This document shows, one piece after another, positions 1,837-33,623 of a stretch of 37,775 nucleotides of DNA (the stretch's first letter is position 1; every line of letters starts with the position of its first letter). The notes under the pieces are model-generated. The model saw only the letters and a program-made list of their open reading frames with translations. It was not told the DNA's origin and did no database searches. The translations under genes were made by a program, and so were the position numbers. The stretch is from a virus: the IMG/VR virus record IMGVR_UViG_3300044256_000031; one strand, written 5' to 3'.

Positions 1837-3054
1837 ATGATCTTACCTGCTACGAACGGAGTACACAAGGCTGTGGACGATCTCTACGGCGATCACTTTA
1901 CGGTGGCCCTGGCGCAGGCGATGACGCGCCTCGAATGTGCCCCCTACTGGCACGCGGAAGAGAAGGCCCCCTGTCGGCTGGTGCGGGCGGGCGAGTTGGT
2001 CCGCCTGAGTCGCGTGCAGCTCCATGACGACCGCACCGCCACCGTGCACGGCTCGACGAAGCCCTACGACATCACGGGGTTTCACTGCACCTGCCCGCAA
2101 AGCCAGAAAGGGCCGAGCAGGTGGTGCGTCCACGCCGTGGCGGTGAAGCTCGCCAGGACGATGGCCGAGAAGGCTCCGCAGGTCCTGGCCAGCGCCCCCG
2201 ATGACGAGGCCCTCGGCAACGGCTCCCCCGTCGATGACGAGACGCTGCCCTTGCCCTTACCCCCAACCACGATTGACGAACGTTTCGCCGTGTTACCCAT
2301 CCCAGCACCACAAGGAGACGTTATGCCCGCAGACGAGTATATCCCTGAGCCCGACACCGAGGACGCGCCTGTGGCAGTCGCAGAGGCCCCGAGAGCCACG
2401 CGCGCGCTGACCCCCGTCGCCCCCCAGGAGGACGACCTGGAGCGTGCCCTGACTGTGTGGACCACGCAACGCCAGGTGGTGCAACGCTTTCTCAAGCAGG
2501 AGCTGAAAGCCAACATCGACTATTACACGCTGCGCATCGGCGGCAAAGACTCGAAGCCGTCGCTGTCGAAAGCCGGCGCCGAAAAGGTCATGGGCTGGCT
2601 CAAAATCCAGGCGTCTTTCACCCCCGATACCGGCACCTGGGAGATGCTCGGCCGTCCGCAGGACCTCGTCTGCTATGTCTGCACATTGCGCACCCGCAGC
2701 GGGGAGATTGTGGGCGAAGGTCGCGGCGCCAGGTCCCTCAAGAAGGATGGCGGCGACGTCAACAAGGCGATCAAGATGGCGGAAAAGTCGGCCTGTGTGA
2801 GCGCGGTGCTGCGGACCGGCTGCTTGAGTGATGTGTTTACGCAAGATCTGGAAGAGATGCAGGAGACGGAGCCGGTGAAGCCCAACCCGCTCCATCCCGC
2901 CGCCGCGCTCCGCCAGCGCATCTGGCAGCTCGTCCAGGCACGGGCGCCCGAGGTGAAAAGCCGTGAGGCGGTGGAAACGTTCGTCAAGGCGCACACGGGC
3001 ATGGACCTGCACCCGGACTTCTATCAGGCCATTATGGAAAGACTTGAAAAATAA
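1837..3054 (+). CDS. SWIM zinc-finger protein with a C-terminal domain of uncertain function (possibly recombination/annealing related)
   Basis: 405-aa ORF. SWIM signature CTCPQSQKGPSRWCVH. A Pro/Asp/Glu-rich linker is followed by a conserved-looking C-terminal domain (KPSLSKAGAEKVMGWL ... DVNKAIKMAEKSACVSAVL). It lies in the replication module. Confidence 0.75.
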   Translation: MILPATNGVHKAVDDLYGDHFTVALAQAMTRLECAPYWHAEEKAPCRLVRAGELVRLSRVQLHDDRTATVHGSTKPYDITGFHCTCPQSQKGPSRWCVHAVAVKLARTMAEKAPQVLASAPDDEALGNGSPVDDETLPLPLPPTTIDERFAVLPIPAPQGDVMPADEYIPEPDTEDAPVAVAEAPRATRALTPVAPQEDDLERALTVWTTQRQVVQRFLKQELKANIDYYTLRIGGKDSKPSLSKAGAEKVMGWLKIQASFTPDTGTWEMLGRPQDLVCYVCTLRTRSGEIVGEGRGARSLKKDGGDVNKAIKMAEKSACVSAVLRTGCLSDVFTQDLEEMQETEPVKPNPLHPAAALRQRIWQLVQARAPEVKSREAVETFVKAHTGMDLHPDFYQAIMERLEK

Positions 3055-3072
3055 GCGGATATCGCGTCAGCA

Positions 3073-3408
3073 CCTCGCCCTGAAGGACGAGGCTTGCCGC
3101 TGGCTTACAACCGCGAGAGGGGAGCCCTCGCAGCACGCGCTACCACGGGAGCCGGTACCCAGCTCCGTTAGGGCAGACTGACAGTGCCCCAATTGCTCGC
3201 ATGCCTTTGAACTTGGAAAAAAGTATGGCGGCATAGACCAGAGCCCGACCGTTTTACCCCGCATGCGGGTGCCTTCAGCTCTGGATAGCGTGTACCAGTT
3301 GTTTTGTAACCTATGCTAGTGCAATGTGGCTCCGCCACACAAGGAATTGCCGCTCGTTGGCGGCAACCTCTTTTCCTCCCCGGCCTGAACGCCGGGGTTT
3401 CTCAGAGG
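3073..3408 (-). ncRNA. Structured repeat element, copy A (about 336 nt), RNA sense on the minus strand
   Basis: Its reverse complement aligns end to end with 19232-19587. At least 9 hairpins are retained through compensatory changes, and the G.U pairs occur only on this strand. Confidence 0.7.
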
Positions 3409-3415
3409 TTTTCTG

Positions 3416-3661
3416 ATGAGACGGGCTTCGCGCCCCCAGGCACGTACAGGAACGGGAGGACACGCCGTGAACGAGCGAACCCACCGCACCGAGGACCGGG
3501 ACTGTTGGTGTCAGCCCCGGGTTGAACAACCCTGTCGCCACTGCCAGAGCGAGAGCTGGTATGCCAGTTGTGTGTTCTGCGGGGGGCGTGGCTGGGAAGC
3601 TGCCTACGACCAAGAGACGCCAGCCGTGGTGATCCACGCGCCCCAGAAGGAGGCGCCATGA
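3416..3661 (+). CDS. Small Cys-rich (zinc-ribbon-like) hypothetical protein
   Basis: ORF with CWC...CRHC...CVFCGG. The more likely start is GTG 3467, preceded by GGGAGGA. The stop overlaps the next ATG (ATGA). Confidence 0.6.
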   Translation: MRRASRPQARTGTGGHAVNERTHRTEDRDCWCQPRVEQPCRHCQSESWYASCVFCGGRGWEAAYDQETPAVVIHAPQKEAP

Positions 3662-3879: not shown

Positions 3880-4172
3880 TCGCCGGTATCCGCAGCCCGG
3901 ACGCCCACGACACGCAGCACCACCCGCTGTCTGCGGCCCACAGCCCGACGGACGCGGCGTCCGGGCAGACGGTCTACGTCGTCTGCGGCTTTGGCGGGTG
4001 TCCGCAACGCCTGGCGGTGGACGCGGCGGTGTGGCGGGCGGAAGCGGCGCGCCGCGGGGCGCAGTCGCAGGGGGTGCAGGTGTGGCACGCGCGGGGAGAC
4101 ATCCTGGTGCCGGTGGCGCCCAACGTGGACGGGCTGGTGCCGTCAACGACTACTGGCACTGAAGTGCCGTAG
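3873..4172 (+). CDS. Hypothetical protein (99 aa)
   Basis: ATG overlaps the previous stop, and AAGGAGGA lies 6 nt upstream. Confidence 0.65.
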   Translation: MLIAGIRSPDAHDTQHHPLSAAHSPTDAASGQTVYVVCGFGGCPQRLAVDAAVWRAEAARRGAQSQGVQVWHARGDILVPVAPNVDGLVPSTTTGTEVP

Positions 4173-4217
4173 CTTGTCGCTGCCTTACAGGCAGCCAGTC
4201 CAGGAGGACTGACATCC

Positions 4218-4349
4218 ATGCGCGACCATCGGCTGGTTGACCGCAGCCGTAAGCACTCTCACGAGTGCGTGTGCAGTGATCCAGAGGCAGTCTATACGAC
4301 GGCGCCGGTGGACGATGGGAGTCCCTGTGGCCTGTTCTGTCACCGCTGA
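4218..4349 (+). CDS. Small Cys-rich hypothetical protein (43 aa, below the track cutoff)
   Basis: ATG preceded by CAGGAGGA. Translation is MRDHRLVDRSRKHSHECVCSDPEAVYTTAPVDDGSPCGLFCHR. Confidence 0.45.
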   Translation: MRDHRLVDRSRKHSHECVCSDPEAVYTTAPVDDGSPCGLFCHR

Positions 4350-4360: not shown

Positions 4361-4567
4361 GTGCCTGAGCCCGAGCATACCTATCCGTCTCTCTACCCCC
4401 CCGGCTCGACCTGGGCGATCACCGAAGCCTGGGGCATCCTTGACCAGCTACGCCCTGGGCTGCTCGACGACGACACCCGTGCCTTCCTGGCCGGCAACAT
4501 TGCCGGTACGCTGATGCGTCTCGTGCAGAAGCACGCGCACGAGGACACGCCGTCAACCTCCCCATAG
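4361..4567 (+). CDS. Hypothetical protein (68 aa)
   Basis: GTG start preceded by GAGGAG. Same strand and spacing as the neighbouring genes. Confidence 0.6.
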   Translation: MPEPEHTYPSLYPPGSTWAITEAWGILDQLRPGLLDDDTRAFLAGNIAGTLMRLVQKHAHEDTPSTSP

Positions 4568-4599
4568 CTGAAGCAAGGGGTTTCTCGAAAGGACACGCC

Positions 4600-4914
4600 A
4601 TGACCACGCCGCGCCCCTACGCCACCCTGGAGACGCACCTGTGGTCTCCCGGCTGCACGACGTATCTCTCCTTGCCTGCCACTGACGGCTGGATGGACGT
4701 GTTCCGCGCCTGGCACTGTACGCGCTGTGGCCTGCACACGTGGGCCACGGGGGCAGTCGACGTCACGACGCGGCCGCTCTCCCCGGTCGAGTGGCAGACG
4801 CAGGCCACGGCGCAACAGGCCGGGGGTGATCTGTACGGACAGGCGGCGCGACAACAGGAACAATGGGAGCGGCAGCAGCGCGGGGTCAGCCGGCGGCTCC
4901 GGGAGGGACGGTGA
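4600..4914 (+). CDS. Hypothetical protein (104 aa)
   Basis: ATG preceded by GAAAGGA. Contains a CTRC motif and a Q-rich C-terminus. Confidence 0.65.
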   Translation: MTTPRPYATLETHLWSPGCTTYLSLPATDGWMDVFRAWHCTRCGLHTWATGAVDVTTRPLSPVEWQTQATAQQAGGDLYGQAARQQEQWERQQRGVSRRLREGR

Positions 4915-5147
4915 CGAAAAAAGCGTTGTTTTCTGCCCTCTGCGCCGTCGCAGACGCGCTCCAGGCGGAATGCGTGCGCCTGGACATTTCGCCGCACACG
5001 CTGGCGCTGGAGGCGATCGTGGAGAGTCTGGACGTGCTGTTAGACCAGATCCTGGAGGAAGGCGTGCAGGACGCCGCGCCGCCCAGACGCCCGGGGGAGG
5101 GCCGCTGGACGTTGCCGCCGACACCGGAGGACGAGGCGCATGGCTGA
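4911..5147 (+). CDS. Hypothetical protein (78 aa)
   Basis: GTGA start/stop overlap with the previous gene, with GGGAGGGA upstream. This is the internal part of track ORF 4863..5147. Confidence 0.6.
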   Translation: MTKKALFSALCAVADALQAECVRLDISPHTLALEAIVESLDVLLDQILEEGVQDAAPPRRPGEGRWTLPPTPEDEAHG

Positions 5148-5230: not shown

Positions 5231-5258
5231 GGGCTTGTGTTGGGGTACGGGAGTGTGG
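5231..5258. repeat. 28-bp direct repeat, left copy (GGGCTTGTGTTGGGGTACGGGAGTGTGG)
   Basis: Exact repeat of 5955-5982, read directly. Confidence 0.9.
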
Positions 5259-5305
5259 GAGAGCTGTACCATAACACTTGGGAGTGTTGCGGTTAAATTA
5301 TAACC

Positions 5306-5659
5306 TCAGCATTCTTCCTTCCTGTTGATTGAAGCCTCAGTACTAAAAGCACTGCCATAACGTGACTGCAACTTCGCTATGTTTTGCGCTGCTACTGAGT
5401 TGAGGTTGAATCCAAGTGCACTACACAGCTCTGCAACATACCAGAGTACATCACCTATTTCATCGCTTAGTTTATCCAAGTTTGGTGAATCCAGGTGATA
5501 GACCATCTTCTTGATATGATCAGCAACTTCGCCTGCCTCGCCATTGAGACCTAGTGTTGCCATGAGCATGTTCTCACGTCTGTCAGTATTGTTGCGCGTG
5601 TCAATAGGTGCAAATGCACTGGTACGACGTGCCAGCTTTTGATACTCGTTAAGGTCCAT
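5306..5659 (-). CDS. mazG: MazG-like nucleoside triphosphate pyrophosphohydrolase
   Basis: 117 aa from the internal Met (MDLNEYQKLARRT...). Typical MazG helices are present: EAGEVADHIKK and EIGDVLWYVAELC. GC content is visibly low compared with the flanks. Confidence 0.85.
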   Translation of the reverse strand: MDLNEYQKLARRTSAFAPIDTRNNTDRRENMLMATLGLNGEAGEVADHIKKMVYHLDSPNLDKLSDEIGDVLWYVAELCSALGFNLNSVAAQNIAKLQSRYGSAFSTEASINRKEEC

Positions 5660-5760
5660 GCGTAGTTCTCCAGTGCTGAGGTTAGAAATTAACCTCACTA
5701 ACATCCCAAGGTTGAGGTACAGTGCTGGAGAGCACTTCTCAGTGCTCCCCTTGACAGGTT

Positions 5761-5807
5761 CCTCCTTGAACCTCCCCACGGCTAAAGCCGGGGGAGGTTC
5801 AAGGAGG
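5761..5807. repeat. 47-bp near-perfect hairpin with an IS-end-type core (CCTCCCC-N-TAAA-N-GGGGAGG) extended by a 10-bp outer stem
   Basis: CCTCCTTGAACCTCCCC ACGGCTAAAGCCG GGGGAGGTTCAAGGAGG, read directly. Confidence 0.8.
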
Positions 5808-5954
5808 CCATCACGGCGTCGGGCTCGACTTGTCACTCGATTATTTGACCAACATCGCCCGCGAGCGGCTGGGCCTGGCGGCGCTCAGGAGGTGGACTGA
5901 CGGCGCGGCCCCCCGGGTGGAGCACTACGAGGACTTGCCCTTGTTTGCGAGGTA

Positions 5955-5982
5955 GGGCTTGTGTTGGGGTACGGGAGTGTGG
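5955..5982. repeat. 28-bp direct repeat, right copy
   Basis: Exact repeat of 5231-5258. Confidence 0.9.
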
Positions 5983-6070
5983 TAGAAGGGGCGTCTACTG
6001 AGGCGGAACGGGCCGTGTTCAAAGCACAGCCCGATTCCTATGCACTCCCCTATCTGGACATAGGAGAGCC

Positions 6071-6541
6071 ATGTCAACACGCATTCTAGCAGCCATCCGG
6101 TCCTGTCCGCAACTCCACGGCAACCTGAAATTCACCGCCCTTGAAATTGCGCATCGTCTCAACGGTGCCGGGTATGGTCGTGTCGCCCACCAGTTTATGG
6201 CCCACAAAACGGGCTATTCCGTGCGTACTGCCTTCCGCCATGCGGGGAAGCTCGTCGCCATGGGCATCTTCGCCAAAACCGTCTATCGTACCGCCCACGG
6301 TTGCGGTATTAATCTCTACCGCTGCCTGCTGCCCATCCCAGCGTTTTATCGCGCAGCGCCAGCAACGACGCATAGTGACAGCGTGTCAGCGACTCTTCCT
6401 CCCCACGAGAAAGAAAAAGATACGAGCGTGCGTCAGGATCTCGATAACCAGCGCAAAGGCATCCGGTTCCTGACCGCTGGCAGCGATCGGTGGACCAGAG
6501 TGCTTGACGTCCTCCCACGACTAAAGTCGCGGGATTCCTAA
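6071..6541 (+). CDS. Winged-helix/HTH DNA-binding protein; the C-terminus runs into the IS right end
   Basis: The N-terminal 90 aa look like a winged-helix fold (FTALEIAHRLN...GYSVRTAFRHAGKLVAMGI). The last codons are read from the IS end hairpin at 6511-6538. RBS AGGAGAG is present. Confidence 0.6.
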   Translation: MSTRILAAIRSCPQLHGNLKFTALEIAHRLNGAGYGRVAHQFMAHKTGYSVRTAFRHAGKLVAMGIFAKTVYRTAHGCGINLYRCLLPIPAFYRAAPATTHSDSVSATLPPHEKEKDTSVRQDLDNQRKGIRFLTAGSDRWTRVLDVLPRLKSRDS

Positions 6542-6700
6542 GAGCGTTGCACGTCCGCAACGGAGTATATTATGCGCAGCATTGCGGTCCCGTTTATGCA
6601 CAGCACCACAACCAGCGCACGTCCATACTCTTACCCCCAGCGCACTCAGTCCACTCGGCCCGGTGCGAGCACCACAAGCCGAGCAAGTCACACTGGAGTA
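6495..6700 (-). ncRNA. Predicted TnpB guide RNA (omega/reRNA) scaffold overlapping the tnpB 3' end and the right end
   Basis: Placed from family knowledge only. Hairpins CGTTGC-ACGTCC-GCAACG (6545-6562) and 6511-6538 are visible. The extent is not determined. Confidence 0.35.
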
Positions 6701-7573
6701 GGATTCATTGACTTCGCCATAGATCACGCCAAGCCGCTTGGCTTTATATTCCAGGCATGTGCGAAGTTGGCCCCATCCGGCATCAAGCACAGATTTGGCC
6801 ATCCGAGTTTTGACCAACTTGGTACTGGAGACATTCCCGACAGCGATCAGCTTAGCGCGGTGCACAATGGCTGTCGTGGTCTTGTGCGTCCAGTCCTTGC
6901 GGCAATTGGCAATCTTGGCGTGGATAGCCTTGACGCGCTTCGTCTTGTTAGCTCTCTGTGCCATAGCCAGCGCGTCTTCATGCGTCCGCGTCAGGTTGTC
7001 TCTGGAGTAGGGCTCATCCATATCAGAGCACCAGAGCTGGTTGGTAAGCCCCAGGTCGATACCGATTTCTGTGTCCCCAACAGGTACGTTGGCGTCTTCA
7101 ACCTCGCACTGGAAGTTGACGTACCATCTGCCTCTCGCATCTTGCGTGAAGCTGCCAGTCTTCACTCTTCCAGTAATCGCACGCGAGAGCCAAAAGCGGA
7201 AACGGCGCTTCAAATATTTGATGGAGTCGTCGTCAATCTTCAGAAAGCGTGCCTTGAACGGTATCCATCCAAGCGACCGCTTCCGGCTACGCCACTTCAA
7301 GCGTCGTTTCCTGGCAGCCACACGCTTCGCAACGTACTCCCGGCATATCTCGCTGATCGTGTCAGAATGCAAACCAAGTTCAGCGCCAGCGCCAGCACAC
7401 AGGTTAATCAGTTCAAATGTAGACAGCCAGTGCTTGTCTCGACGCAGCGCCAGCATGGATACCTCGTTACAGAAGTTCCAGACGGTATTGACGGCCCAGC
7501 CAAGGCGCACAAGGTGCTTACTGCTTGTAGAGTCTTTGATCCTGTATTTGAAGGTCAGCATACTACTTGGCAT
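6521..7573 (-). CDS. tnpB: TnpB (IS605 OrfB-type RNA-guided nuclease family), non-canonical RuvC-II position
   Basis: 350 aa with RuvC-I GIDLG, the conserved block SVLDAGWGQL, zinc ribbon CSACG...CAGCG, and RuvC-III HKRDRNAAHNI. Confidence 0.9.
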   Translation of the reverse strand: MPSSMLTFKYRIKDSTSSKHLVRLGWAVNTVWNFCNEVSMLALRRDKHWLSTFELINLCAGAGAELGLHSDTISEICREYVAKRVAARKRRLKWRSRKRSLGWIPFKARFLKIDDDSIKYLKRRFRFWLSRAITGRVKTGSFTQDARGRWYVNFQCEVEDANVPVGDTEIGIDLGLTNQLWCSDMDEPYSRDNLTRTHEDALAMAQRANKTKRVKAIHAKIANCRKDWTHKTTTAIVHRAKLIAVGNVSSTKLVKTRMAKSVLDAGWGQLRTCLEYKAKRLGVIYGEVNESYSSVTCSACGARTGPSGLSALGVRVWTCAGCGAVHKRDRNAAHNILRCGRATLLGIPRL

Positions 7574-7973
7574 GGTGGCTCTCTTGCGCTTCGATGTACT
7601 TCTTTATCGTATCAGCAGAGACATGCCCAGCCGTGCCAACGTAATAGCTTGGAGCCCACAGCCTATCAGAGCGCGTGCGTTTGCGGAGCTGGGGATACAT
7701 CAAGCGGAGTTGGCGAGCAGAAATACCTTTGAAGAGCTTGACGGATTGCGCGATAGACATCGTAGGCGGCATAGAGACGAAGAGGTGTACGTGATCCGGT
7801 TGGACATCGACAGCCAAAACATCCATGTGGTTCTGGTGGGCAATCGTATGCAACAGATTCTCCAACGTCGTCTTGACTGGCTCTTGAAGCACATCACGAC
7901 GATACACCGGACGCCACACTATATGATATGCTGTCAGGTATACGCAACCTCTTGTATGTATAGGTTCATTCAT
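7563..7973 (-). CDS. tnpA: IS200-type Y1 (HUH) transposase TnpA
   Basis: 136 aa with YHIVWRPVYRR, the HUH motif HVHLFVSMPP, and the catalytic-Tyr region PSYYVGTAG. Confidence 0.9.
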   Translation of the reverse strand: MNEPIHTRGCVYLTAYHIVWRPVYRRDVLQEPVKTTLENLLHTIAHQNHMDVLAVDVQPDHVHLFVSMPPTMSIAQSVKLFKGISARQLRLMYPQLRKRTRSDRLWAPSYYVGTAGHVSADTIKKYIEAQESHHAK

Positions 7974-8101
7974 ATGTTAATGGTAGCACAAAACTGTTGC
8001 GTTTGCAACGCAACGTTGCTTTCCTCCCCGCACTGAAGTACGGGGTCTCCAGCAACGATTTCTTAGGAAGAGATCACCCGATTGGAGGGCCTGCTGATGC
8101 C

Positions 8102-8800
8102 CTAGCGCACCGTCACCTCGACGCGTCGATTCTTCGGCTCTGGCCGCTCTGGCGCATCAATCACCGGCTGACGCTCGCCACGGCCCGTCACGCGCACAAA
8201 CGTCGCGGTCAGCCCCCCCTGCACCAGCAGCGCACGCACCGCTTCTGCCCTGGCCAGCGACAGCGCATCATTCGCCGCGTCCGTCCCTACCTGGTCGCAG
8301 TGCCCTTCGATGACCACCTCCACCGGCCCACGCCGGTGGACCTCTGCCAGCAGGTGCCCCAGGGTGACACGCCCCTCGGCACTGAGGCCGGCCTTGCCCG
8401 TGGCGAACCGGAACGTATACGTGGCTGCCCCCTCTGGCGCCGTCGCAATGACCGCCCCATAGCGCTCCTGAATCGTCGCGGGCGGCAGCGTCCCGAGCAG
8501 GAGCTTCCCGCCCTTCCAGATGTTCGCCGTGCTGTCGGGCGCCGTGAGGGTGGTAGTACCCGTGGCCGTGGTCACGGTCAGTGCTTCCCCGGGCTCAGCG
8601 CCCAGCAGCACGATACGCTCGCGGGGTCCCGCACAGGCGCTGAGGAGCAGCAGCAGGAGGAGCAGCGTGGGGCTCAGAGAAGGAAGATACACGCGAGCGC
8701 GATAACGATGAGCATGCAGATCATCATGATCAGGATGCCAGACCAGTCGTCGAACCACGCCGTCCACCGCGCTAGCTGTCGCGCCATCCACCTGCCCCAC
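8102..8800 (-). CDS. OmpA/MotB-domain lipoprotein (peptidoglycan-binding)
   Basis: Lipobox LLLLSAC. The C-terminus reads VVIEGHCDQVGTDAANDALSLARAEAV...NRRVEVTV. The start is uncertain: GTG 8800, GTG 8791 or GTG about 8691. Confidence 0.8.
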   Translation of the reverse strand: MGQVDGATASAVDGVVRRLVWHPDHDDLHAHRYRARVYLPSLSPTLLLLLLLLSACAGPRERIVLLGAEPGEALTVTTATGTTTLTAPDSTANIWKGGKLLLGTLPPATIQERYGAVIATAPEGAATYTFRFATGKAGLSAEGRVTLGHLLAEVHRRGPVEVVIEGHCDQVGTDAANDALSLARAEAVRALLVQGGLTATFVRVTGRGERQPVIDAPERPEPKNRRVEVTVR

Positions 8801-8810: not shown

Positions 8811-9194
8811 TCACTTTTGTGTCACCTTCTCCACCGGCAAAGCCATCCACCTATAGATACTTGGCCACGCACCAACGTGATACCTGAGGAGCACATCCCC
8901 TGTCTGACTGCAGAGCGTCGCGCGCACGACAATCCCATGTGGCCCGTCAATTTCCCAGGTCCCCTGCTCCTGGATACACGCCAGGTTGCGCTGCCATAAG
9001 CGCTCCTGTTCCTGCACCAGCTGGAGTTCGGAGCGTGCCACGCCCAGCCTGAGCGCCTTATACTCCTCCCAGACGCGAGGGACGGCGGCAAACAGACTCG
9101 TCCCGAGGGCAGGATAGACGAGCGCCCATTGCCACCACTTCGTTGCGGAAGATGGCGCTGGACCTGGTGTGGTTGTCGCAGCTTCGTCAGCCAC
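8811..9194 (-). CDS. Membrane-anchored protein (N-terminal TM plus a coiled-coil-like segment)
   Basis: 127-aa ORF with a GTG start and TM segment WWQWALVYPALGTSLFAAV. Confidence 0.65.
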   Translation of the reverse strand: MADEAATTTPGPAPSSATKWWQWALVYPALGTSLFAAVPRVWEEYKALRLGVARSELQLVQEQERLWQRNLACIQEQGTWEIDGPHGIVVRATLCSQTGDVLLRYHVGAWPSIYRWMALPVEKVTQK

Positions 9195-9507
9195 GCCTCA
9201 GCGCCCCAGCGGGATGGCCCGCAGCAGCTCGATCACCACGAGCACCAGGGCTGCAATCCCCAGGAGCAAGAAGACCGTCACCACGGATGCTCTCCTCTGG
9301 CGCGGGACCGTCCGCAGACGCGTCCACCGGTTCGGGCGTTGCGAGCACTTCTTCCAGCACCTGCACCGCCCCAGCGATCCGCAGCAGCATCTCGCTGAGC
9401 ACGGTGCGCCGCGTCTCCAGCTGCGTGAGCGCGTCGTTCCCGGTGGCGAGTTCCTGGCGCAGCGTGGCCAGGCGGGCCTCGACGGCGGGGCGCAGGGCGG
9501 CGCTCAG
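9187..9507 (-). CDS. Coiled-coil-like hypothetical protein with a possible CTG start; the C-terminal part is doubtful
   Basis: The frame is open from 9585 with no ATG/GTG/TTG before 9402. CTG 9507 overlaps the upstream TGA (CTGA) and has GGGAGG 6 nt upstream. Translation ALRPAVEARLATLRQELATGNDALTQLETRRTVLSEMLLRIAG looks genuine. Confidence 0.35.
   Translation of the reverse strand: MSAALRPAVEARLATLRQELATGNDALTQLETRRTVLSEMLLRIAGAVQVLEEVLATPEPVDASADGPAPEESIRGDGLLAPGDCSPGARGDRAAAGHPAGALRRG
9198..9284 (-). CDS. 28-aa hydrophobic peptide (single TM)
   Basis: GTG start preceded by GAGGAG about 8 nt upstream. Translation is VVTVFLLLGIAALVLVVIELLRAIPLGR. Confidence 0.4.
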   Translation of the reverse strand: MVTVFLLLGIAALVLVVIELLRAIPLGR

Positions 9508-9863
9508 GCTTCGCCTCCCGTCGCCACCTGCGCGATCGAGTTCCAGTAAAAGGTGATAGCACTGCTCAGCGCCAGATCCGGCGCACTACTATCGACCAGC
9601 ATGGGGTCTTCGCTCGGCACCACCGTGCCCAAGATGACCCGCCCCGGCGCATTCGAGCGACAAATCGCCAGGGCAATCGTCGGTGCCGTCTGTGCCGGGT
9701 ACGTCAGAAACGTATGCGCCAGGTTGACCCGTGCCTCGTGCTCGGGCGTGGCCTGGTCTTCATCGACGACGCGCGCCGCCTCGTCCCAGGCCAGGTACTG
9801 CACGCGGGTGAGGAATGCGTCACTGGCGACCAGTTGCATCTGTTCGGTGGACGGTTCGGCCAT
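9504..9863 (-). CDS. Hypothetical protein (119 aa)
   Basis: Clean ORF with an ATG start and coding-like composition. No recognisable motif. Confidence 0.7.
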   Translation of the reverse strand: MAEPSTEQMQLVASDAFLTRVQYLAWDEAARVVDEDQATPEHEARVNLAHTFLTYPAQTAPTIALAICRSNAPGRVILGTVVPSEDPMLVDSSAPDLALSSAITFYWNSIAQVATGGEA

Positions 9864-9885
9864 ACTATCAATCTCGTTTCTAGTA

Positions 9886-10327
9886 CTCCACCTAGACCAC
9901 TTCCGAGTGGTTAGGTGGGGGTGAAGGAAACGTTGCCCCCCACGAGGGGCAATTCCCTATGCAGCGGAGCTGCACAAATCAGTTGCATAGGTCACAATAT
10001 ACAAGGTACGATTAGCACAGACCTTGTGTCTCCGTCCGTTGAGCTTCAATGCTGACGTGACGGCTTGCTCTTTGCACTTCGCATAGGGCGTTGTCCGGGG
10101 AAGTCCCGGACGTAAAATGTGAAACGTTGAGAGATACATTGCCATGCTGCTCCCTGGGCTCTGAGGCCGATGCGAAGGTGTCGCCCAACCCGGAGCGCTG
10201 GTTTGACAGCACCTGTCAGGAACTGGCAGCGGCCGTAATGATGTATCCAGAGAACCAATACCGTGTTGTCCGGTGGTTCTCCGGTGAGCCGGAATCTCCA
10301 TCGAGATCGCGTAGCGATTAGGTGGAG
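9886..10327 (+). ncRNA. Structured noncoding element, copy C (divergent relative of A/B, about 442 nt)
   Basis: A 468-bp gap with no credible ORF. The 5' roughly 110 nt share the A/B module (hairpin, UUGCCCC/GGGGCAA stem, CAAUUCCCU, UGCAGC/GCUGCA stem, UUGCAUAGGUCACAAUAUA). CTCCACCTA (9886-9894) is complementary to TAGGTGGAG (10319-10327). Confidence 0.5.
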
Positions 10328-10331
10328 AGGT

Positions 10332-11513
10332 TCACGTGCCTCCTTCCAGCGCCGCCAGACGTGTTTCAAGCTCGCTCATACGCGAGACCAATTGCTTCAG
10401 GGCTTCCACGGTGAGTCCTTCAAAGCCCTGGATTTCCAGTTGTAAATAGGTGTCTGGCCCGGTGGACACCCAGCCGGGGATGACCGGCTGCACCTCCTGG
10501 GCAATGAGGCCAAAGTATGAGCCGGTGCGTCCGCCGCGTTTGACTGGATCGCGCCAGCGGTAGGTGATGCCGTGGAGGGCCGTCAGGATGCCGAGCGCAT
10601 CCGGGATCTCCTGGATGGCGGTTTTGAGGCGCGCGTCGCTGCTATCCGCGAAAGGGCCGCCCCCGGGCTTGAACGCCTGCGTTTGCACAGAGAGGTTCCC
10701 GTAGCCAATCGTGACCTGATTGATGCCCGAGAGGTCGGGGGCCGTGCCACACCCGATGGGGCCATTGAGGCGGGACGCGCCGTTGGTATAGAAGCGGTCC
10801 GTCGCGAGGTCAAAGCCCGCCGGCACGGCGAGCATGACCCCGACCGGCCCGTTAAAGAGACTCGCACCGACGCCAGTCGTGAGGGCATAGCCCGCCACCG
10901 GAGCCGTGCCCAGGCCCACCGGGTACTGGAAGTGCGAGGCCCCGGCGGCGTAGAGCTGGTTCACGGTGAGCTGATACCCCGGCTCCGCCGTCCAGCCCAC
11001 CTGCGCCGTCGTCAAGGCCGCCGTCCCCCCCGTAATCGCCACCGCGTTCGCGTGCTGCGTCGCCATGGTGCCCAGGCCGCTCAGCGCCCGCCACGCCTCA
11101 GCGCGGGTCACGCCGGGGGCCGGGGTGACGGCGGTGATGATGCCGCCGGCGACCGTGCACGACGCGAACACGAGCAGGCCGTCCACGTCGGGCGGACGTG
11201 TCCCAGACAAACGCCAGACGTAGCTGCTGCCAGCTCTACGGGTCCAGCCAGCATAGGCGGTGGAAACATCGCGAGTCATACCCAACCAGTATGTTCCATC
11301 TGACCCAGAGAGAGGCACCGTAATAGAGGGTTGCTCTACATAGACCAGGGCGTGACCGTCCCTCACATATCCAAGAGTACCGAACGCCGCGAGCGTCATC
11401 GAGGACACGGGGACCGTGGGCCATGTCGTGCTCACGATACAGGCCGGCAGCAAATCTTCACAGGTCGCTTGCAGCTCATAGGCAAAATCTGCCACAGCGT
11501 GTGTATTTGGCAT
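10332..11513 (-). CDS. Tail fibre/spike protein with a C-terminal S74-type intramolecular chaperone domain
   Basis: The C-terminus reads SDARLKTAIQEIPDALGILTALHGITYRWRD...GLIAQEVQPVIPGWV...LTVEALKQL. RBS GGGGAGGA is present. Confidence 0.85.
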   Translation of the reverse strand: MPNTHAVADFAYELQATCEDLLPACIVSTTWPTVPVSSMTLAAFGTLGYVRDGHALVYVEQPSITVPLSGSDGTYWLGMTRDVSTAYAGWTRRAGSSYVWRLSGTRPPDVDGLLVFASCTVAGGIITAVTPAPGVTRAEAWRALSGLGTMATQHANAVAITGGTAALTTAQVGWTAEPGYQLTVNQLYAAGASHFQYPVGLGTAPVAGYALTTGVGASLFNGPVGVMLAVPAGFDLATDRFYTNGASRLNGPIGCGTAPDLSGINQVTIGYGNLSVQTQAFKPGGGPFADSSDARLKTAIQEIPDALGILTALHGITYRWRDPVKRGGRTGSYFGLIAQEVQPVIPGWVSTGPDTYLQLEIQGFEGLTVEALKQLVSRMSELETRLAALEGGT

Positions 11514-11525: not shown

Positions 11526-12590
11526 CTAGAGGGGCATCAGTGTGGACCAGTAGAGCGTCACCTGCAGTTGCCCGGTGGCATCGAACGTGCCGCCCTGCGC
11601 ACTCACCAGCACGGTATAGCCCGGCGGTGCGATGGGCTGCGTGTCACTGTGGAAATCGAGTTGATTGGTGGTCGTGTCGGGCGTCAGCGAGCCACTCACG
11701 CCCCAGCGATCACTCACGACCCCATCGCCCAGGATCAGGCCCGTGAGGCCCCGGGAGATGCCGAACTCCGTCACCACCGTCGTGGTCAGCCCGAGCAGCC
11801 GCGCATCGGCGGGCGCCAGGCCGCTCGCCGTGAGCACGCTGGCGCCATCACTCGCCGTCAGGGTGGCTTCGGTGGACCCGAACTCGACCATCGCCGGGTT
11901 CGTGCCAGGGGGTTCCGTCGTCCCCAGGAATTGCCAGTAGAGGCGCGCCGTGAGTTGGCCACTCCCGTCAAAGAGCCCGCCCGCCGCGCTCACCCGCAGT
12001 TCGTAGGGCACCGCCGTGCACACCTCCGTGTCGCTGTGAAAGTGTTGCTCACGCTGCACCGTGCCGACGGTGAGGGTGGGTTGGTCGCCCCAGCGGTCGA
12101 GCACCACCTGGTCCCCGAGGAGGAGCCCCGTCAGGCCGTGCGACGTGCCAAAGTCCTCGGTGATCTCCGTCGTCAGGCCGAGCAGGCGGTAGCCCGCCGG
12201 CGCCAGACCCGTGGCCGTGAGCACGGCCGCGCCGTCAATGGCGTCAATGGTGGCCTGCGCGGAGCCGACCTGCACCAGGCCGGGCGAGGGCGTAACGCCG
12301 CTTTGGTACGAAAAGCTATGAACTTCCCATATTAATACATCATCACTATCGTATAATCTGAGGTCATACACGCCGTCGAGATACACGAGTGCCGAGCCTT
12401 GATCCGAGAGCACCACGGGATTGCTATTGGGCGTAACCATGAATGGATCTATATAGGTTGATTTAGGAGTAGATGTGCTAGGAATAAATGAATATAATTT
12501 TGCCCCGATGGCCGCCTCAGAATCTACGAAGGCCTGGAAGACTGGCCATGGGACGATAACAATCGTTGTTGGCTCAATAACAGGGGCCAT
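11526..12590 (-). CDS. Tail fibre protein with two copies of a repeat domain of about 115 aa
   Basis: ATG 12590 (the track start 12608 is TTG). There is an internal duplication of ...GLAPAxxRLLGLTT...GLTGLxLGDxVVxDRWG.... The N-terminal part is low in GC. Confidence 0.8.
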   Translation of the reverse strand: MAPVIEPTTIVIVPWPVFQAFVDSEAAIGAKLYSFIPSTSTPKSTYIDPFMVTPNSNPVVLSDQGSALVYLDGVYDLRLYDSDDVLIWEVHSFSYQSGVTPSPGLVQVGSAQATIDAIDGAAVLTATGLAPAGYRLLGLTTEITEDFGTSHGLTGLLLGDQVVLDRWGDQPTLTVGTVQREQHFHSDTEVCTAVPYELRVSAAGGLFDGSGQLTARLYWQFLGTTEPPGTNPAMVEFGSTEATLTASDGASVLTASGLAPADARLLGLTTTVVTEFGISRGLTGLILGDGVVSDRWGVSGSLTPDTTTNQLDFHSDTQPIAPPGYTVLVSAQGGTFDATGQLQVTLYWSTLMPL

Positions 12591-17275: not shown

Positions 17276-19210
17276 CTAACGATTCAGGCTCGCCAGTAGA
17301 CTGGTCGCATTATTCGTGGCCCCGCCCAGGGCGCGTTGCCAGGACAACGCCGGCCCCAAGGCCCCCAGACCCTGCGCATTGCCGAGCTGCCCGAGCAGAC
17401 TCGCTTGCTGCTGGGCATAGTTCGCCCCCTGCGTGCCGAGTTGACCTACGCTTGTTTGCCCGATGTTCGCAAGCCCAGCGAGCCTGTTCCACTGCGTCTG
17501 CTGGTTCTGGAGCTGGCTGTTGTACTGCGCCAGCATGCGCTCATAGTCCGTGGCGTTTTGCGCCGTATCCCGCCCGTACTGCGTCTGCGACTGCTGCATC
17601 ATGCGGTCGTAGACACTCTGGTCATACGCCTGGCGCTGCTGCTGCTCCCACTGCTGCCCGGTGAGCCCTTGCTGCCAGGCCGTCTGCTGCCCCTGCAGGG
17701 CCTGCTGCCAGTTCTGGCTCCCGGCCTGCTGCGCCAGGTGTTCCCGCACGCCCGTCTCCCCCATGGCCCGCGACCAGTCGAACTGCTGCCCGGCCATCCC
17801 CTGCTGCCACTGCTGCCCTTGCGCGCCGAGCACCTGCGAGAAGCCCTGCTGCGACGCTTGCTGCGCCATCTGCTCACGGAAGGCGGCTTCGGTCTGGGCC
17901 TGCGACCAGCCCTGTTGGGTGGCAACGTGTTGGAGCTGCTCGCGGAGCTGCGCCGCACTCATGGCCTGGCCAAAGTTTTGCGCCGTGGCCTGTTGGCCCC
18001 ATTGTTCGCGCATCTGGGCTTCCTGCGCCGCCTGCCCAAACCCTTGCTGCGTGGCGTATTGGTTCCAGCCCTCGCGCATCTGCGCCTGCTGGCTGGCGCG
18101 CTCGAAGGCGTTGCCGTACTCCTGCGAGGAGAGTTCCTGCCCCTGGCGCTGGAGGGCGGCCAGCGCCGGCCCGGAGAGCGCGCCGCCCCGCGCGGCCGCC
18201 GAGGCCTCCATGGCGTTGCGGCCTTCCTGGAGCCGAAAAGCCACGCCCGGATCGTTCGCGAGCAGCTCCTGCCCGCTCAAGGTCGGCACGGCCCCCGGCG
18301 TGTACCGATAGTCGGCGGCCCGGGGCGCACTGCCCGGGGTGTAGCGGTACTGCGCCGCGTCGGGAGTCTGGCCCGGCGTGTAGCGATAGTCCTGCGCCCG
18401 CGGTCCCTGGCCTGGCGTCCAGCGGTAGTCCCCCGCCTGCACGGCCTGCGGCCCCTGATAGCCGTACTGGCTGGCCTGGGGAACGGCCCCCGGCGTGTAG
18501 CGGTAGGCGTCCGGGTTTGGCACGCCCCAGAGGCCACCGCCCCCCGTCCCTGTGGCAGGGTCGCCCGTCATCCCATGCGTCATCATGCCGCTCATGTCCC
18601 CGCCGCCTGGACGTTGGGGTCCCGCGTACGCCATCGGGCTCCAGGTCGGGGCGATCTGCGGCAAGGCGTACCCGGCCCCACTGATGGACGGCGGCGGCTG
18701 GAAGGCCGCCTGCGGCCCCTGCCCGGCGAGCTGCTGGAGCTGTGGCAAGGCCTGCTGTCCGGCCTGGAGCCATGGCGCCTGATTGGCCTGCTGCTGGAGC
18801 CACTGCGCCGTCTGGAGGTCCATGCCCCGGTTCAGGGCCGCCGCCTGCTGCCGGGCCGCGTCGGCGCTGGCGTTGCTGCCAATGGCGCCACCCGCCAGCG
18901 ACCCCGCGCCACTCACGAGCGGGCCGAGCACGCCGGCGTGCTGGCCGAGGAAGCCGCCGACACTGCCGAGCGCACCGAGGATCGTGTTCCACCAGTTGCC
19001 GCTGCCTTCTCCCGTCAAGCTCGGATCGCCACTGGAGCCCGGGCCATACGGGTCGTTCCAGCTGAGGAAATCCTCGGAGCCCCCCATGCCGCTGAAATTG
19101 GTATATTCCGGCCCCGCCCCGCCAAAGGCATCGCCCCACCCTGGCGCCATGACCGTGCCGTAGCCCTCGCCACTGCCCAGGTCGAGATTCAGCCAATCCC
19201 ACTCGCTCAT
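17276..19210 (-). CDS. Gly/Gln-rich repetitive internal (ejection-type) protein
   Basis: 644 aa. It carries five (Y/W)R(Y/W)TPG repeats (nt 18293-18508) and about five 22-aa AQMREqWxQxATQQGFGQA repeats (nt 17681-18088). Confidence 0.8.
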   Translation of the reverse strand: MSEWDWLNLDLGSGEGYGTVMAPGWGDAFGGAGPEYTNFSGMGGSEDFLSWNDPYGPGSSGDPSLTGEGSGNWWNTILGALGSVGGFLGQHAGVLGPLVSGAGSLAGGAIGSNASADAARQQAAALNRGMDLQTAQWLQQQANQAPWLQAGQQALPQLQQLAGQGPQAAFQPPPSISGAGYALPQIAPTWSPMAYAGPQRPGGGDMSGMMTHGMTGDPATGTGGGGLWGVPNPDAYRYTPGAVPQASQYGYQGPQAVQAGDYRWTPGQGPRAQDYRYTPGQTPDAAQYRYTPGSAPRAADYRYTPGAVPTLSGQELLANDPGVAFRLQEGRNAMEASAAARGGALSGPALAALQRQGQELSSQEYGNAFERASQQAQMREGWNQYATQQGFGQAAQEAQMREQWGQQATAQNFGQAMSAAQLREQLQHVATQQGWSQAQTEAAFREQMAQQASQQGFSQVLGAQGQQWQQGMAGQQFDWSRAMGETGVREHLAQQAGSQNWQQALQGQQTAWQQGLTGQQWEQQQRQAYDQSVYDRMMQQSQTQYGRDTAQNATDYERMLAQYNSQLQNQQTQWNRLAGLANIGQTSVGQLGTQGANYAQQQASLLGQLGNAQGLGALGPALSWQRALGGATNNATSLLASLNR

Positions 19211-19231: not shown

Positions 19232-19587
19232 CCTCCGGGAAACCCAGGCTCTTGGAGCTTGGGAGGGATAGGAGGTTGGCTCGTAGAGCCAATTCCCTGT
19301 TAGCGGGACGCCAATTCCCTCTGCGCGTAGCGCACATTCCCCTTGCTTAGGTTACAAAATACTAGATAGACTTTTACCAGAGCTGAAGGCACACCAGCGA
19401 TGGTGCTGAAACGGTTGGGCTCTGGTTGTGCCGCCATACTTCTTTCCCGAGTTAAAAGGCATCAAGGTACACAGGCCGCAGTCAATCGGCCTAACGCGAG
19501 AAGGTACTTCTCGTAAAGTAGCGCATCGAACAGGGCTACCCTCTGTGTCGTGTAAGCCAGCTACAAGCCCAAGGATTTATCCTTGGG
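19232..19587 (+). ncRNA. Structured repeat element, copy B (about 356 nt), RNA sense on the plus strand
   Basis: Homologous to the reverse complement of 3073-3408, with covarying stems. The terminal hairpin loop contains the stop codon of CDS 19577..20698. Confidence 0.7.
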
Positions 19588-20698
19588 TGGTTGACCTGTG
19601 CAGGTTCGCCAGGGTGGGCTGCCGCCGCCGGGCCAGTCCCTGCATGACGCCCTGCGTGACGCCTTTGGCGGCCCCGAGTAAGCCCTGCACGCCACTCCCC
19701 GCCTGCCCAAGTTGCCCCGCCAGCCCGAGATAGCGACTGGCCTGCTGGAGCGGGTCGGCCCCCGGGATGCGCCCCAGCGACCCCGTGATCCGCCCGGCAC
19801 TCTGCGCCAGGCGCGCCGCATCACTGAGCGAGTGGATGCCCCCGCCCAGCACGTTGGTCAGGCCGCCAATGCCCCCGGCCAGCCCGCCCGCGATGCCCAG
19901 CCCCAGGCCCAGGTTCCGCAACCACGGCTGGTTGGTGGCGTGCCCAAGGACGCCCGCCCCGGTGCCCGCGATGCCCGAGAGCGTGCCGAGGCTCCCGAGC
20001 GTGGTGGCCAGGCCCGCGCCCCCCGCAAACAAGGGAGCGGCGGCCAAGCCACCCGTGGCCCCCAGGCCCAGCACGCCGAGCGCGCCGATGAGGTTGTCGC
20101 CCAGCGGGTTAAAGGCATCACTCGCCTGCGGCACACTGGCCCGATAGTCCCAATCGCCCGCCATGCCCACAACCTTGCGGTACAAGTCGCGTTCCTGCGT
20201 GGAGGCCTTCCCGGCTTCGAGCTTGTCGCGCAAGGTGAGCACAATCCCGCCCACGTCCGGGCTGCCGGGATCGAGCGACGTCCACCAGTCTTTGTTGGCG
20301 TGCTCCCCGGCGTACTCCCCCTGCCAGCCGGCCTGTAACTGGCTGATGTCGCGAGTGGGAATCGCCCTGGCTTGCTGCTCCCACTGCTGATACTGCTCCC
20401 GCTCCCAGGGCTGCGCCTGCCCCGCACGGACCCGGTCCCGCAAGGCCAGGAGCTCCGTCACATAGCCCGGCGCGGTCTCCGGCATACTCCCCTGCCAGGC
20501 ACGGTGCTCCGGCGCCCACTGAAAGGCCTCGTGCCCATACTGCGCCGTATTGCGATACTCCGGCAGTTTCGTCGTGCCCTCGATACCCCAGGTGATCTTC
20601 TCGCCATTCGGCAAGGTGATCTCGCCAGGTTCAGGGATGTTCGCCCCTTCCTCGCTCTCGTCCACAATGCCCGTGCCAGGAACATACCACTTGGCCAC
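19577..20698 (-). CDS. Gly-rich membrane-active internal/ejection protein
   Basis: 373 aa. GTG start with AGGAGG upstream. The C-terminal half is made of G/A/L-rich hydrophobic repeats. Confidence 0.75.
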   Translation of the reverse strand: MAKWYVPGTGIVDESEEGANIPEPGEITLPNGEKITWGIEGTTKLPEYRNTAQYGHEAFQWAPEHRAWQGSMPETAPGYVTELLALRDRVRAGQAQPWEREQYQQWEQQARAIPTRDISQLQAGWQGEYAGEHANKDWWTSLDPGSPDVGGIVLTLRDKLEAGKASTQERDLYRKVVGMAGDWDYRASVPQASDAFNPLGDNLIGALGVLGLGATGGLAAAPLFAGGAGLATTLGSLGTLSGIAGTGAGVLGHATNQPWLRNLGLGLGIAGGLAGGIGGLTNVLGGGIHSLSDAARLAQSAGRITGSLGRIPGADPLQQASRYLGLAGQLGQAGSGVQGLLGAAKGVTQGVMQGLARRRQPTLANLHRSTTQG

Positions 20699-31822: not shown

Positions 31823-32313
31823 GTGAGCACATACTGTGTAAGGTTGACGTCAGCCTGCGCACCCTTCCACAGGCCCAGGTGCTCCCCAAGTTTTTCCAAC
31901 GCCTGCAACTTATTGTGCAGCTTCAGGCGTATCGTGCCGCCATGTTCGGTCGTCGTTTCCGAGACTTCCGCGACCACGCGGCGCTGCGCCGGCGTCAGGC
32001 TCGCAGAATCCTTCAGACGCACCCCATCTCCCCCCCACCGCATGTAGGTACTCATATCGGCAAAGCCCACATGCGCCAGTTCGGTCACCACCCGTTCTTG
32101 CGTCACCGCACAGGCGGCCTGGAGGGCCTGCTGGCGGGCGGCGATGGCCTCGGCAATGTAGGGTTTTGTGAGGTTTTCATAGCCGATGAACCGCGCGGTT
32201 GTCGCACTATAGCCGGCACGGATAGCCGCTTGCGTCGCGTTCAGATCGATGAGGTACTCATCGACAAAGCGCTGTTGCAGGGGCCTGAGCGTGCGTGTGG
32301 TCGTGCGCGGCAT
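31798..32313 (-). CDS. terS: Terminase small subunit (Terminase_2-like HTH)
   Basis: Contains LRPLQQRFVDEYLIDLNATQAAIRAGYSATTARFIGYENLTKPYIAEAI. The start is uncertain (32313, 32325 or 32352). Confidence 0.85.
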   Translation of the reverse strand: MPRTTTRTLRPLQQRFVDEYLIDLNATQAAIRAGYSATTARFIGYENLTKPYIAEAIAARQQALQAACAVTQERVVTELAHVGFADMSTYMRWGGDGVRLKDSASLTPAQRRVVAEVSETTTEHGGTIRLKLHNKLQALEKLGEHLGLWKGAQADVNLTQYVLTWLSKSPS

Positions 32314-32397
32314 AGCGTCCCCCATCCGTGTGCCGGGGGTGAGGCGGCACACGGCGGGTGTGGTAATTCAGAGAGTCTGATGGCATGCACAGGAGAT

Positions 32398-32491: not shown

Positions 32492-32555
32492 ACACGAGCG
32501 TGAAGGTAAATGAGCGTGTGAGGCATGTCAAGCGGAAAAGTTCAGGCGTCGTCCG

Positions 32556-33544: not shown

Positions 33545-33559
33545 GGTAAGAATATTACC
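33545..33559. promoter_or_regulatory. Operator-like palindrome GGTAA-N5-TTACC (site 1)
   Basis: GGTAAGAATATTACC in the CI/Cro intergenic region. Confidence 0.6.
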
Positions 33560-33608: not shown

Positions 33609-33623
33609 GGTAACAATATTACC
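33609..33623. promoter_or_regulatory. Operator-like palindrome GGTAA-N5-TTACC (site 2)
   Basis: GGTAACAATATTACC. Confidence 0.6.

Follow-up and report, generated by a model that had tools for sequence, protein, structure and literature searches.

Diverged copies of a pseudoknotted, multi-helix RNA family in a P22-like podophage and the modular cassettes that carry them

Phage morons, as found in HK97/HK022-type lambdoid phages, are autonomous promoter-gene-terminator units located between conserved phage genes. Lambda oop, lambda paQ and P22 sar are simple hairpins of ~70 nt that act by complementarity to one specific mRNA, while the HK022 putL and putR RNAs, also ~70 nt long and with two stems, lead into the operons that they antiterminate. 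HEARO, IS605-orfB, ROOL, GOLLD and raiA are multi-helix, pseudoknotted RNAs of phage or mobile DNA that are recognised by covariation and have mostly unknown functions. Here, we analyze two related elements, A (3066-3408, minus strand) and B (19232-19595, plus strand), in IMG/VR virus record IMGVR_UViG_3300044256_000031, a stretch of 37,775 nt referred to below as the window. Both are diverged copies of a genuine multi-helix structured RNA family of P22-like phages. Their ~340 nt are a composite of a 5' hairpin module (P1 to P3), a conserved joining sequence (J box) and a structured RNA of ~220 nt (payload).

In functional terms, the closest parallels would be morons and antisense RNAs with promoters of their own, oop and sar among them. 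Like a moron, the cassette is self-contained between conserved genes, is present or absent at orthologous sites and apparently brings its own promoter; it differs in that its payload is a structured non-coding RNA, mostly in antisense orientation, and that one putative promoter/hairpin module serves at least two unrelated RNAs. With oop, paQ and sar it shares a putative promoter of its own, predicted transcription against the surrounding operon and a temperate phage with a CI/Cro switch, whereas the A/B RNA is ~220 nt long, has eight helices, a pseudoknot and conserved loops, and lies beside unrelated genes without coding overlap, apart from up to ~12 nt of the upstream gene's 3' end (seen in B). 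The parallel with putL and putR consists of two diverged, paralogous structured RNAs per phage genome, placed directly after a promoter, a putative one in the case of A and B, and with helices kept by compensation, but no genes follow the A/B payload on the RNA strand.

Comparison with catalogued families gave no match. In Rfam 15, no model reached its gathering threshold anywhere in the window, A and B searched one by one at E<=10 gave noise only, and ARAGORN found no tRNA or tmRNA gene in the window, in agreement with the preliminary description, which had recognised no tRNA, tmRNA, RNase P, 6S RNA or group I/II intron. Its analogies to omega, HEARO and ROOL RNAs do not hold. The cmscan search that it proposed, aimed at HEARO, IS605-orfB, ROOL, GOLLD and raiA, produced no model match: the best HEARO (RF02033) hit in A scored 11.6 bits (E=6.7, opposite strand) against a gathering score of 83 and B had none, and the ROOL, GOLLD and raiA models matched neither A nor B even at E<=10. 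Compared with this set, A and B have neither a sequence or structure match nor an IscB, TnpB or tRNA neighborhood, and they are smaller than ROOL and GOLLD. No IscB (RuvC + HNH) open reading frame (ORF) lies beside A or B, whose neighbors are a 405-aa SWIM-like protein (phrog_10048), a DNA-ejection protein (phrog_598) and a Gly-rich virion protein. IS605-orfB models do not match either element, and the only TnpB lies 3.1 kb from A and 11.6 kb from B. A TnpB/omega-RNA arrangement, suggested by the position of the elements downstream of 370-405-aa ORFs on the opposite strand, was discarded as these ORFs are SWIM-like or Gly-rich virion proteins and the strand test points the other way. Similarly, a group I intron splitting a virion gene at B was rejected for want of an Rfam match, because start and stop codons are separate and because the strand is wrong; the ORFs flanking A and B each have their own stop codon and their own Shine-Dalgarno (SD) sequence and start, and are encoded opposite to the payload strand. 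Literature searches on the J sequence and on comparable phage RNAs retrieved no description of the element. Thousands of unnamed RNA candidates have been predicted computationally in IMG/VR (PMC10690425), and the A/B element may be among them.

Covarying helices and a pseudoknot

Aligned end to end, the reverse complement of A and B are identical in 222 of 339 columns (65.5%, with 28 gap columns), matching the two-thirds identity previously estimated by eye. The insertion of ~22 nt noticed in B proves to be an internal duplication, CAATTCCCT...CAATTCCCT, at about 19290-19320 (the 22 nt at ~19299-19320, plus strand), which is counted among the gap columns. BLASTN with A against the window retrieves B (E=9e-23), and nhmmer retrieves both (E<1e-90 each). 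Homologues were collected by pattern scans of IMG/VR, JGI metagenomes and related-portal contigs, followed by confirmation with nhmmer and covariance models (CMs). Full-length relatives occur on contigs L020 (= L019), L014 (two copies, L014a and L014b), L027, L022 (= L024, L026), L021 (= L025), L030, L028 and L031, and more divergent full-length ones on L033, L039 (two copies) and L040. A scan of 185,579 representative genomes yielded no confirmed family member; its sole match, L023 (Clostridia), was not confirmed by nhmmer.

Three CMs were used, R3 for the 5' hairpins with J, R2 for P4 and R1 for the 3' domain, and pairs were counted on the model-produced alignments of A, B and 8-10 further homologues from phage and metagenome contigs. 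Standard pairs fill 91.9% of the cells in the 3' domain, 86.6% in P4 and 88.0% in the 5' hairpins, values that are somewhat inflated because the alignments are fitted to the model. Changes on both sides of a pair are seen in 23/39, 9/12 and 13/25 pairs, respectively, hence in 45 of 76 pairs overall (87-92% of cells being standard pairs). An unfitted MAFFT/RNAalifold alignment likewise shows compensatory changes in 27 of 40 pairs. None of 500 shuffled controls reached the observed values on any of five measures in any of the three domains, and sliding the partner strands lowered pairing to 27-56% and the covariation score three- to eight-fold. A multi-helix family with covarying stems, as first proposed, is thus borne out by compensatory changes in all domains and by the shuffles, and all ten helix pairs listed at the outset are present at equivalent positions.

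The 5' hairpin module of A (3325-3408, minus strand; R3 140 bits) contains P1 (3404-3408 with 3367-3371), which encloses P1a (3391-3397 with 3378-3384), followed by P2 (3360-3366 with 3347-3353) and P3 (3334-3339 with 3325-3330). In B the module spans 19232-19334 on the plus strand, with P1 at 19232-19236/19271-19275, P1a at 19243-19251/19255-19263, P2 at 19276-19282/19286-19292 and P3 at 19322-19326/19330-19334. The payload RNA of A (3066-3284, minus strand; R2 70.8 bits, R1 123.8 bits) opens with P4 (3277-3284 with 3238-3245), which bears an apical hairpin, P4a, and a conserved asymmetric internal loop, GAAGGCAC / AAACGGUUGG. P5 (3230-3234 with 3201-3205), P6 (3185-3189 with 3171-3175) and P7 (3159-3166 with 3148-3155) follow, then P10 (3139-3143 with 3096-3100), P8 (3125-3131 with 3113-3120) and P9 (3085-3093 with 3072-3080). 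Their counterparts in the payload of B (19377-19595, plus strand) are P4 (19377-19384 with 19418-19425), P5 (19428-19432 with 19458-19462), P6 (19474-19478 with 19487-19491), P7 (19497-19503 with 19507-19513), P10 (19518-19522 with 19560-19564), P8 (19530-19535 with 19540-19546) and P9 (19567-19575 with 19580-19588); the P9 loop of B contains the stop codon (19577-19579) of a minus-strand 373-aa gene.

P10 is an addition to the initial set: GUAGC/GCUAC covaries to GUAAC/GUUAC, GCAGC/GCUGC and GUCGC/GCGAC. Also new are P8b, which extends P8 outwards, and a covarying pseudoknot between the loop of P6 and the 3' tail that follows P9. The latter reads GUCAG/CUGAC in A (3178-3182 with 3066-3070), L027, L030, L039 and L040, GUCAA/UUGAC in B (19481-19485 with 19591-19595), L022, L014a, fragment D of the window (see below) and L033, GUAAC/GUUAC in L031, GUAAAC/GUUUAC in L028 and GUAAGC/GCUUAC in L014b. 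Across these five pairing variants, 98% of cells pair in a hand-made alignment, with compensatory changes at two positions. The conserved GUUGAC after P9 is therefore a pairing strand of the RNA, and this replaces an alternative reading as a -35 box. Since the tail takes part in the fold, the element reaches 7 nt beyond the end first assigned, to 3066 in A and 19595 in B.

No covarying helix that would link the 5' module or J to the rest was found in a long-range scan. Pairing of J with UGUAAGCC, CCUAAC or other conserved strands was considered and dropped because these partners vary while J does not. A conserved small ORF starting from an SD-like AAGGAGGU-UUG was also rejected, as by inspection neither its frames nor its stops are conserved.

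The payload strand is the minus strand for A and the plus strand for B. In the model-aligned helices, the ratio of G.U to A.C pairs on this strand is 43:7 in the 3' domain and 19:4 in P4, i.e., 62:11 downstream of J, and folding energy downstream of J favors the same strand in 12 of 12 sequences, by 3-23 kcal/mol. Upstream of J the ratio is 12:12 and nearly all pairs of the 5' hairpins are Watson-Crick, in A all 25; folding energy there favors this strand in nine of 12 sequences, with a mean of ~3 kcal/mol. The strand assignment of the preliminary description thus stands for the 3' two-thirds of the element and not for its 5' third, which has no asymmetry.

The J box and the composite build of the cassettes

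Between P3 and P4 lies the J box, which holds the conserved joining strand AUAGGUUACAAAA. In all 22 non-redundant cassettes it consists of a TTGCAT-like hexamer, exactly 18 nt that include the invariant TAGGTTACAAA, and a TAYACT-like hexamer, in which TA is invariant and the fourth A and the final T each occur in 21 of the 22 (A itself is the exception for the T). In A the J box occupies 3289-3318 (minus strand), with TAGCAT at 3313-3318, TAGGTTACAAA at 3303-3313 and TACACG at 3289-3294. In B it occupies 19343-19372 (plus strand), with TTGCTT at 19343-19348, TAGGTTACAAA at 19348-19358 and TAGACT at 19367-19372. Homology among cassettes with differing downstream sequences stops 4-7 nt past the TAYACT-like hexamer, and the well-supported part of P4 begins 7-8 nt past it. 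The joining strand is conserved, as had been noted, but it sits in the 18-nt spacer and is common to cassettes with unrelated downstream RNAs, so that a promoter/operator appears more likely than an RNA junction.

The window does not hold two copies only, as first assumed, but also a third, element C (9879-10331, plus strand; R3 87.5 bits), and two fragments, D and E. C begins with a hairpin module and J box of the A/B type (9879-10019, with the J-box core TAGGTCACAAT at 9988-9998), followed by a structured payload unrelated to that of A and B (~10020-10331). The C-type payload recurs with covarying helices behind the same J box in L032 (16930-17241, minus), L035 (two copies, ~3000-3470 and ~4460-4930, plus), L036/L038 (L036 ~8880-9340, minus) and L037 (~11770-12257, plus), and has no Rfam match. 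Its conserved cores are GCUCUGAGGCCGAUGCGAAGGUGUCGC and GGAAUCUCC...GGUGGAGAG, and a AUAGGGCGUU-hairpin-GUAAAAU module is common to the C type and some A/B-type members (L031, L040). Fragment D (4141-4259, minus strand) comprises the 3' domain only, with a P6-like hairpin, a P10/P8 variant, P9 and the pseudoknot tail; in a related phage, the orthologous site holds the full copy L014a, whose 3' domain shares 93.5% identity with D. Conversely, fragment E (7950-8069, core ~8010-8062, minus strand; R3 33.5 bits, E=2.5e-5) retains only a P1/P1a/P2-like module; it directly follows the last late gene (8102-8800) and abuts the IS200/IS605 insertion, and direct repeat D18 supports it as well.

Given the fixed hexamers, the point at which homology ends, the unconserved sequence upstream and the lack of a linking helix, we read J as probably the sigma-70 promoter of an RNA that starts at P4, with predicted starts near 3281-3284 in A and near 19377-19380 in B. 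The invariant TAGGTTACAAA in its spacer probably serves a shared regulator as its operator. There is no further conserved promoter candidate, and the flanks are unrelated between loci; upstream of P1 there is neither conservation nor a conserved promoter, and homology ends at the start of the opposite-strand gene. Several observations weigh against this reading. The promoter at J is deduced from sequence alone, the hexamers of A are poor (TAGCAT, TACACG) and, despite their fixed spacing in 22 of 22 cassettes, a simple consensus promoter scan calls none at A or B. The invariant 11-mer is atypical for a promoter spacer and could be an RNA motif instead. The outermost pairs of P4 begin 4 nt past the -10-like hexamer, and a canonical start would lose 1-3 of these pairs. 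The 5' hairpins covary and must therefore be transcribed on some strand, and the scan at A and B revealed no intrinsic terminator (U-tract) after P9 or the pseudoknot tail.

The strongest rival holds that the whole ~340-400 nt, from P1 to the pseudoknot tail, is one ornate RNA in which J (UAGGUUACAAAA...) is a conserved single-stranded hub or binding site and of which the C type shares the 5' half but not the 3' half. The covariation of the 5' hairpins fits such an RNA, as do the three G.U and no A.C pairs counted by hand in P1a on this strand, a J 11-mer that is better conserved than the putative hexamers, a P4 whose pairing is complete up to 4 nt from the -10-like hexamer and a 5' module that accompanies J in 18 of 22 cassettes. 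In the remaining four, however, the module is replaced by other sequence, and L031, L036/L038 and one L039 copy have an intact payload but lack the original module or carry other sequence in its place. Moreover, the CM-based count in the 5' module (12:12) shows no strand asymmetry, neither the module nor J has a covarying pairing with the rest, and no conserved promoter precedes P1, where homology ends at the start codon of a divergent, unrelated gene. The ~340 nt that the preliminary description took for a single RNA are thus probably not one molecule, and we regard the continuous RNA as rather unlikely.

On the composite reading, the 5' hairpins may insulate the promoter, or may act in the sense mRNA by sequestering an SD sequence or as an RNase III-type site, or both. 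With T7-type RNase III hairpins they would share a two-tier hairpin, a conserved internal loop (GAGAAA / AGGAAA around P1a) and an intergenic position upstream of a ribosome-binding site; they differ from these in that the module also occurs alone at the end of the late operon (fragment E) and is strand-symmetric.

Two other promoter types were tried for J and its surroundings. A sigma-54 promoter (GGCAC...TTGCA) fails on a spacing that is off by 2 and on GGCAC being a covarying P3 strand, and a promoter for a single-subunit RNA polymerase, suggested by the resemblance of TAGGTACACTAT to SP6/K11 sequences, fails because no ORF is large enough and the motif is not conserved in A and B. As a separate observation, a 15-bp palindrome, GGTAATATT(G/C)TTACC, is present in two copies (33609-33623 and 33545-33559) between the divergent CI-like and Cro-like genes. 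These palindromes are probably immunity operators; seven of the eight positions of the half-site TTGTTACC agree with the J-box core in reverse complement (TTGTAACC), perhaps by coincidence.

Genomic placement and possible function

About 18 of the 22 cassettes are antisense to both flanking genes, and three (L014b, L021, L033) are in sense. In the window, A and D are antisense within the plus-strand early operon, B and C within the minus-strand late operon, C lying between the genes 9504-9863 and 10332-11513 (tail fiber). The cassette usually takes up the intergenic gap in full. The SD sequence of the adjacent gene is GGAGG, complementary to the 5' strand of P1, often with the ATG 7-9 nt further, and the genes that use this SD are unrelated, among them those for an ejection protein, the portal and small Cys-rich proteins. 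As with morons, presence and absence vary at orthologous sites: between homologues of g373 and g644 the window carries an A/B-type payload (B), L032 a C-type one and L037 no cassette. Beside the tail-fiber gene, the payload is of the C type in the window (C) and of the A/B type in L040, and in L034, a portal relative, neither CM nor nhmmer detects a cassette. These swaps and absences show that the cassette behaves as an insertion/deletion unit whose payload is independent of position.

We see even chances that A and B are paralogous copies of an autonomous, moron-like RNA-gene cassette that occurs in P22-like and related phages and whose RNA acts in trans. Such a cassette would have three parts. 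The first is the hairpin array P1/P1a, P2 and P3, the outer edge of which would provide the SD sequence, and often the ATG, of the neighbor gene on the opposite strand. The second is the J box as a sigma-70-type promoter (TTGCAT-like, 18 bp, TAYACT-like) with TAGGTTACAAA as a putative operator in the spacer. The third would be an RNA of ~215-270 nt that starts at the base of P4, folds into P4, P5, P6, P7, P10/P8 and P9, and is closed by the pseudoknot, in which GUCAR of the P6 loop pairs with YUGAC of the 3' tail. Inserted in antisense, the cassette could have a promoter without driving the surrounding operon and structures without interrupting it; this placement would keep an unregulated promoter off the neighbors and the RNA out of the operon mRNA, while the edge-borne SD would preserve translation of the gene beside the insertion. 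The RNA may act by its folded shape, as a protein-binding scaffold, a decoy or possibly a ribozyme, and its pseudoknotted 3' end may stabilize it by protection from 3' exonucleases.

Action in trans is suggested by the conserved unpaired motifs, GAAGGCAC / AAACGGUUGG in the P4 internal loop, CCUAAC and UAAGCCAGC, which are kept across unrelated gene contexts. They seem to mark sites at which a protein or ligand recognises the folded RNA, or else a catalytic role. Because they persist across unrelated contexts and payload swaps, pairing with a local mRNA is unlikely as the function of the RNA, and a purely cis-antisense function would not require their conservation.

That the RNA is nonetheless a cis-antisense regulator is, in our estimate, improbable. 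It would pair with the intercistronic mRNA of the operon, giving an RNase III substrate or masking the downstream ribosome-binding site, and so tune the flanking genes. The strong antisense bias, the filling of the whole intergenic space and the SD sequence opposite P1 are what such a regulator would lead one to expect. The ribosome-binding site, however, lies under P1, so that an antisense transcript covers it only if it starts upstream of J; if J is the promoter, the site stays uncovered. In addition, the RNA could pair only with mRNA that is the complement of the cassette itself, the genes on either side are unrelated from one locus to the next, one and the same site may carry either type of payload, three copies are in sense, and pairing between perfect complements needs no conserved loops, G.U pairs or pseudoknot.

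Least probable is a function of the operon-sense strand as a long structured intercistronic leader that controls downstream translation or termination, or a DNA-level repeat such as a recombination boundary or MITE-like mobile DNA: although the sense strand is certainly transcribed within the operon, P1' would sequester the SD sequence, a scan flagged the pyrimidine-rich tracts after P2' and P1a' as terminator-like, the near-pure Watson-Crick 5' hairpins are as expected if both strands matter and an IS200/IS605 element is present in the genome, the antisense strand is the one on which the payload has a six-fold excess of G.U over A.C and a folding energy better by 3-23 kcal/mol, the copies are 65-80% identical with compensatory changes rather than near-identical as after recent transposition, the elements have no terminal inverted repeats or target duplications, and a double-stranded DNA site cannot explain covariation.

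A wider version of the moron-like cassette can be put forward only tentatively. In this version, P22-like phages would carry 'RNA morons', in which a portable cassette of hairpins and promoter/operator (J box, TAGGTTACAAA) is combined with interchangeable RNAs of at least two unrelated folds, several per genome, antisense in essential operons and co-regulated by one factor; the A/B RNA would then represent a new pseudoknotted class and would be a ribozyme or else a decoy/scaffold with a host or defence protein as its target. If correct, this would add a structured RNA class with eight helices, a pseudoknot and compensatory changes in most of its pairs, and an organisational principle undescribed for phages, the reuse of one promoter/hairpin cassette for different ornate RNAs, with several copies inserted backwards in the early and late operons of a 38-kb genome. 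Phage structured RNAs of unknown function (ROOL, GOLLD) are a standing puzzle. The A/B family is found in a genome that is both complete and compact, the payload swaps and the presence or absence of cassettes in nature point to function in trans, the ~220-nt payload is of a size that suits direct biochemistry and structure determination, and the invariant J box predicts a dedicated DNA-binding regulator.

As a conserved partner, an 81-aa ORF (3416-3661) was rejected because it shows no signal in GC content at third codon positions (GC3) and because opposite-strand ORFs are unrelated between loci. The region upstream of the 5' edge of A (3409-3567) has no codon-position GC signal in any frame, nor has L014 958-1342 between its two divergent copies; both appear to be additional non-coding sequence. 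In L030, a 388-aa ORF (984-2150) is convergent with the cassette and has a sub-threshold Pfam match to Transposase_20 (IS110-family, E=5e-4); it is not homologous to the 405-aa neighbor of A. Free-standing HNH endonuclease genes lie near terminase, portal or coat genes in the related phages L021 (1167-1556), L032 (5754-6383) and L033 (14766-15380), and the L021 gene, which is on the strand of the RNA cassette, stops precisely where the cassette has its 5' edge. An association with IS110 or HNH genes is inconsistent across loci and was discarded.

The phage genome and its other features

Bases 1-127 of the window are an exact repeat of 37649-37775; this 127-bp terminal repeat indicates a complete circular assembly of ~37.65 kb, with a GC content of 62%. 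The genome is that of a P22-like podophage. Its minus strand encodes the small terminase (31798-32352), large terminase (30515-31822), portal (28430-30511) and coat (26091-27332), in addition to scaffold, head-closure protein, SLT-domain and DNA-ejection proteins and a tail fiber with an S74 chaperone domain. The portal shares only ~33% identity with the closest named phages, compared to 75-87% with many metagenome relatives. A CI-like gene (32975-33496, minus) diverges from a Cro-like gene (33671-33970, plus), and the plus-strand early genes adjoin this pair. They include the helicase (69-1712), the 405-aa SWIM-like protein next to A (1837-3054), a VRR-NUC nuclease and a primase/helicase.

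A promoter-like 'GAACTTTTC..TTGACA' is conserved upstream of terS (window 32526-32531, minus; L021 2190-2230) and is probably a late or packaging-operon promoter. In L021 it reads TTGACA-17-TAAAAT, which shows that consensus sigma-70 promoters are in use in these phages and is in line with the promoter reading of J.

Between the end of the late operon and the MazG region, abutting fragment E, an IS200/IS605-family insertion of lower GC content (~6400-8010) encodes a Y1 transposase (tnpA, 7563-7973, minus) and TnpB (tnpB, 6521-7573, minus); Rfam found no omega-RNA family there. The MazG-like gene itself (5306-5836, minus, low GC3) is flanked by 32-nt direct repeats (5231-5262 and 5955-5986, 97% identical), and a 24-nt inverted repeat pair (5288-5311 and 5674-5697) lies in the same region, an arrangement that suggests a separately acquired cassette. 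Finally, the gene of the 644-aa DNA-ejection protein contains 39-nt tandem repeats (18294-18436) that encode (D/Q)YRYTPG motifs.

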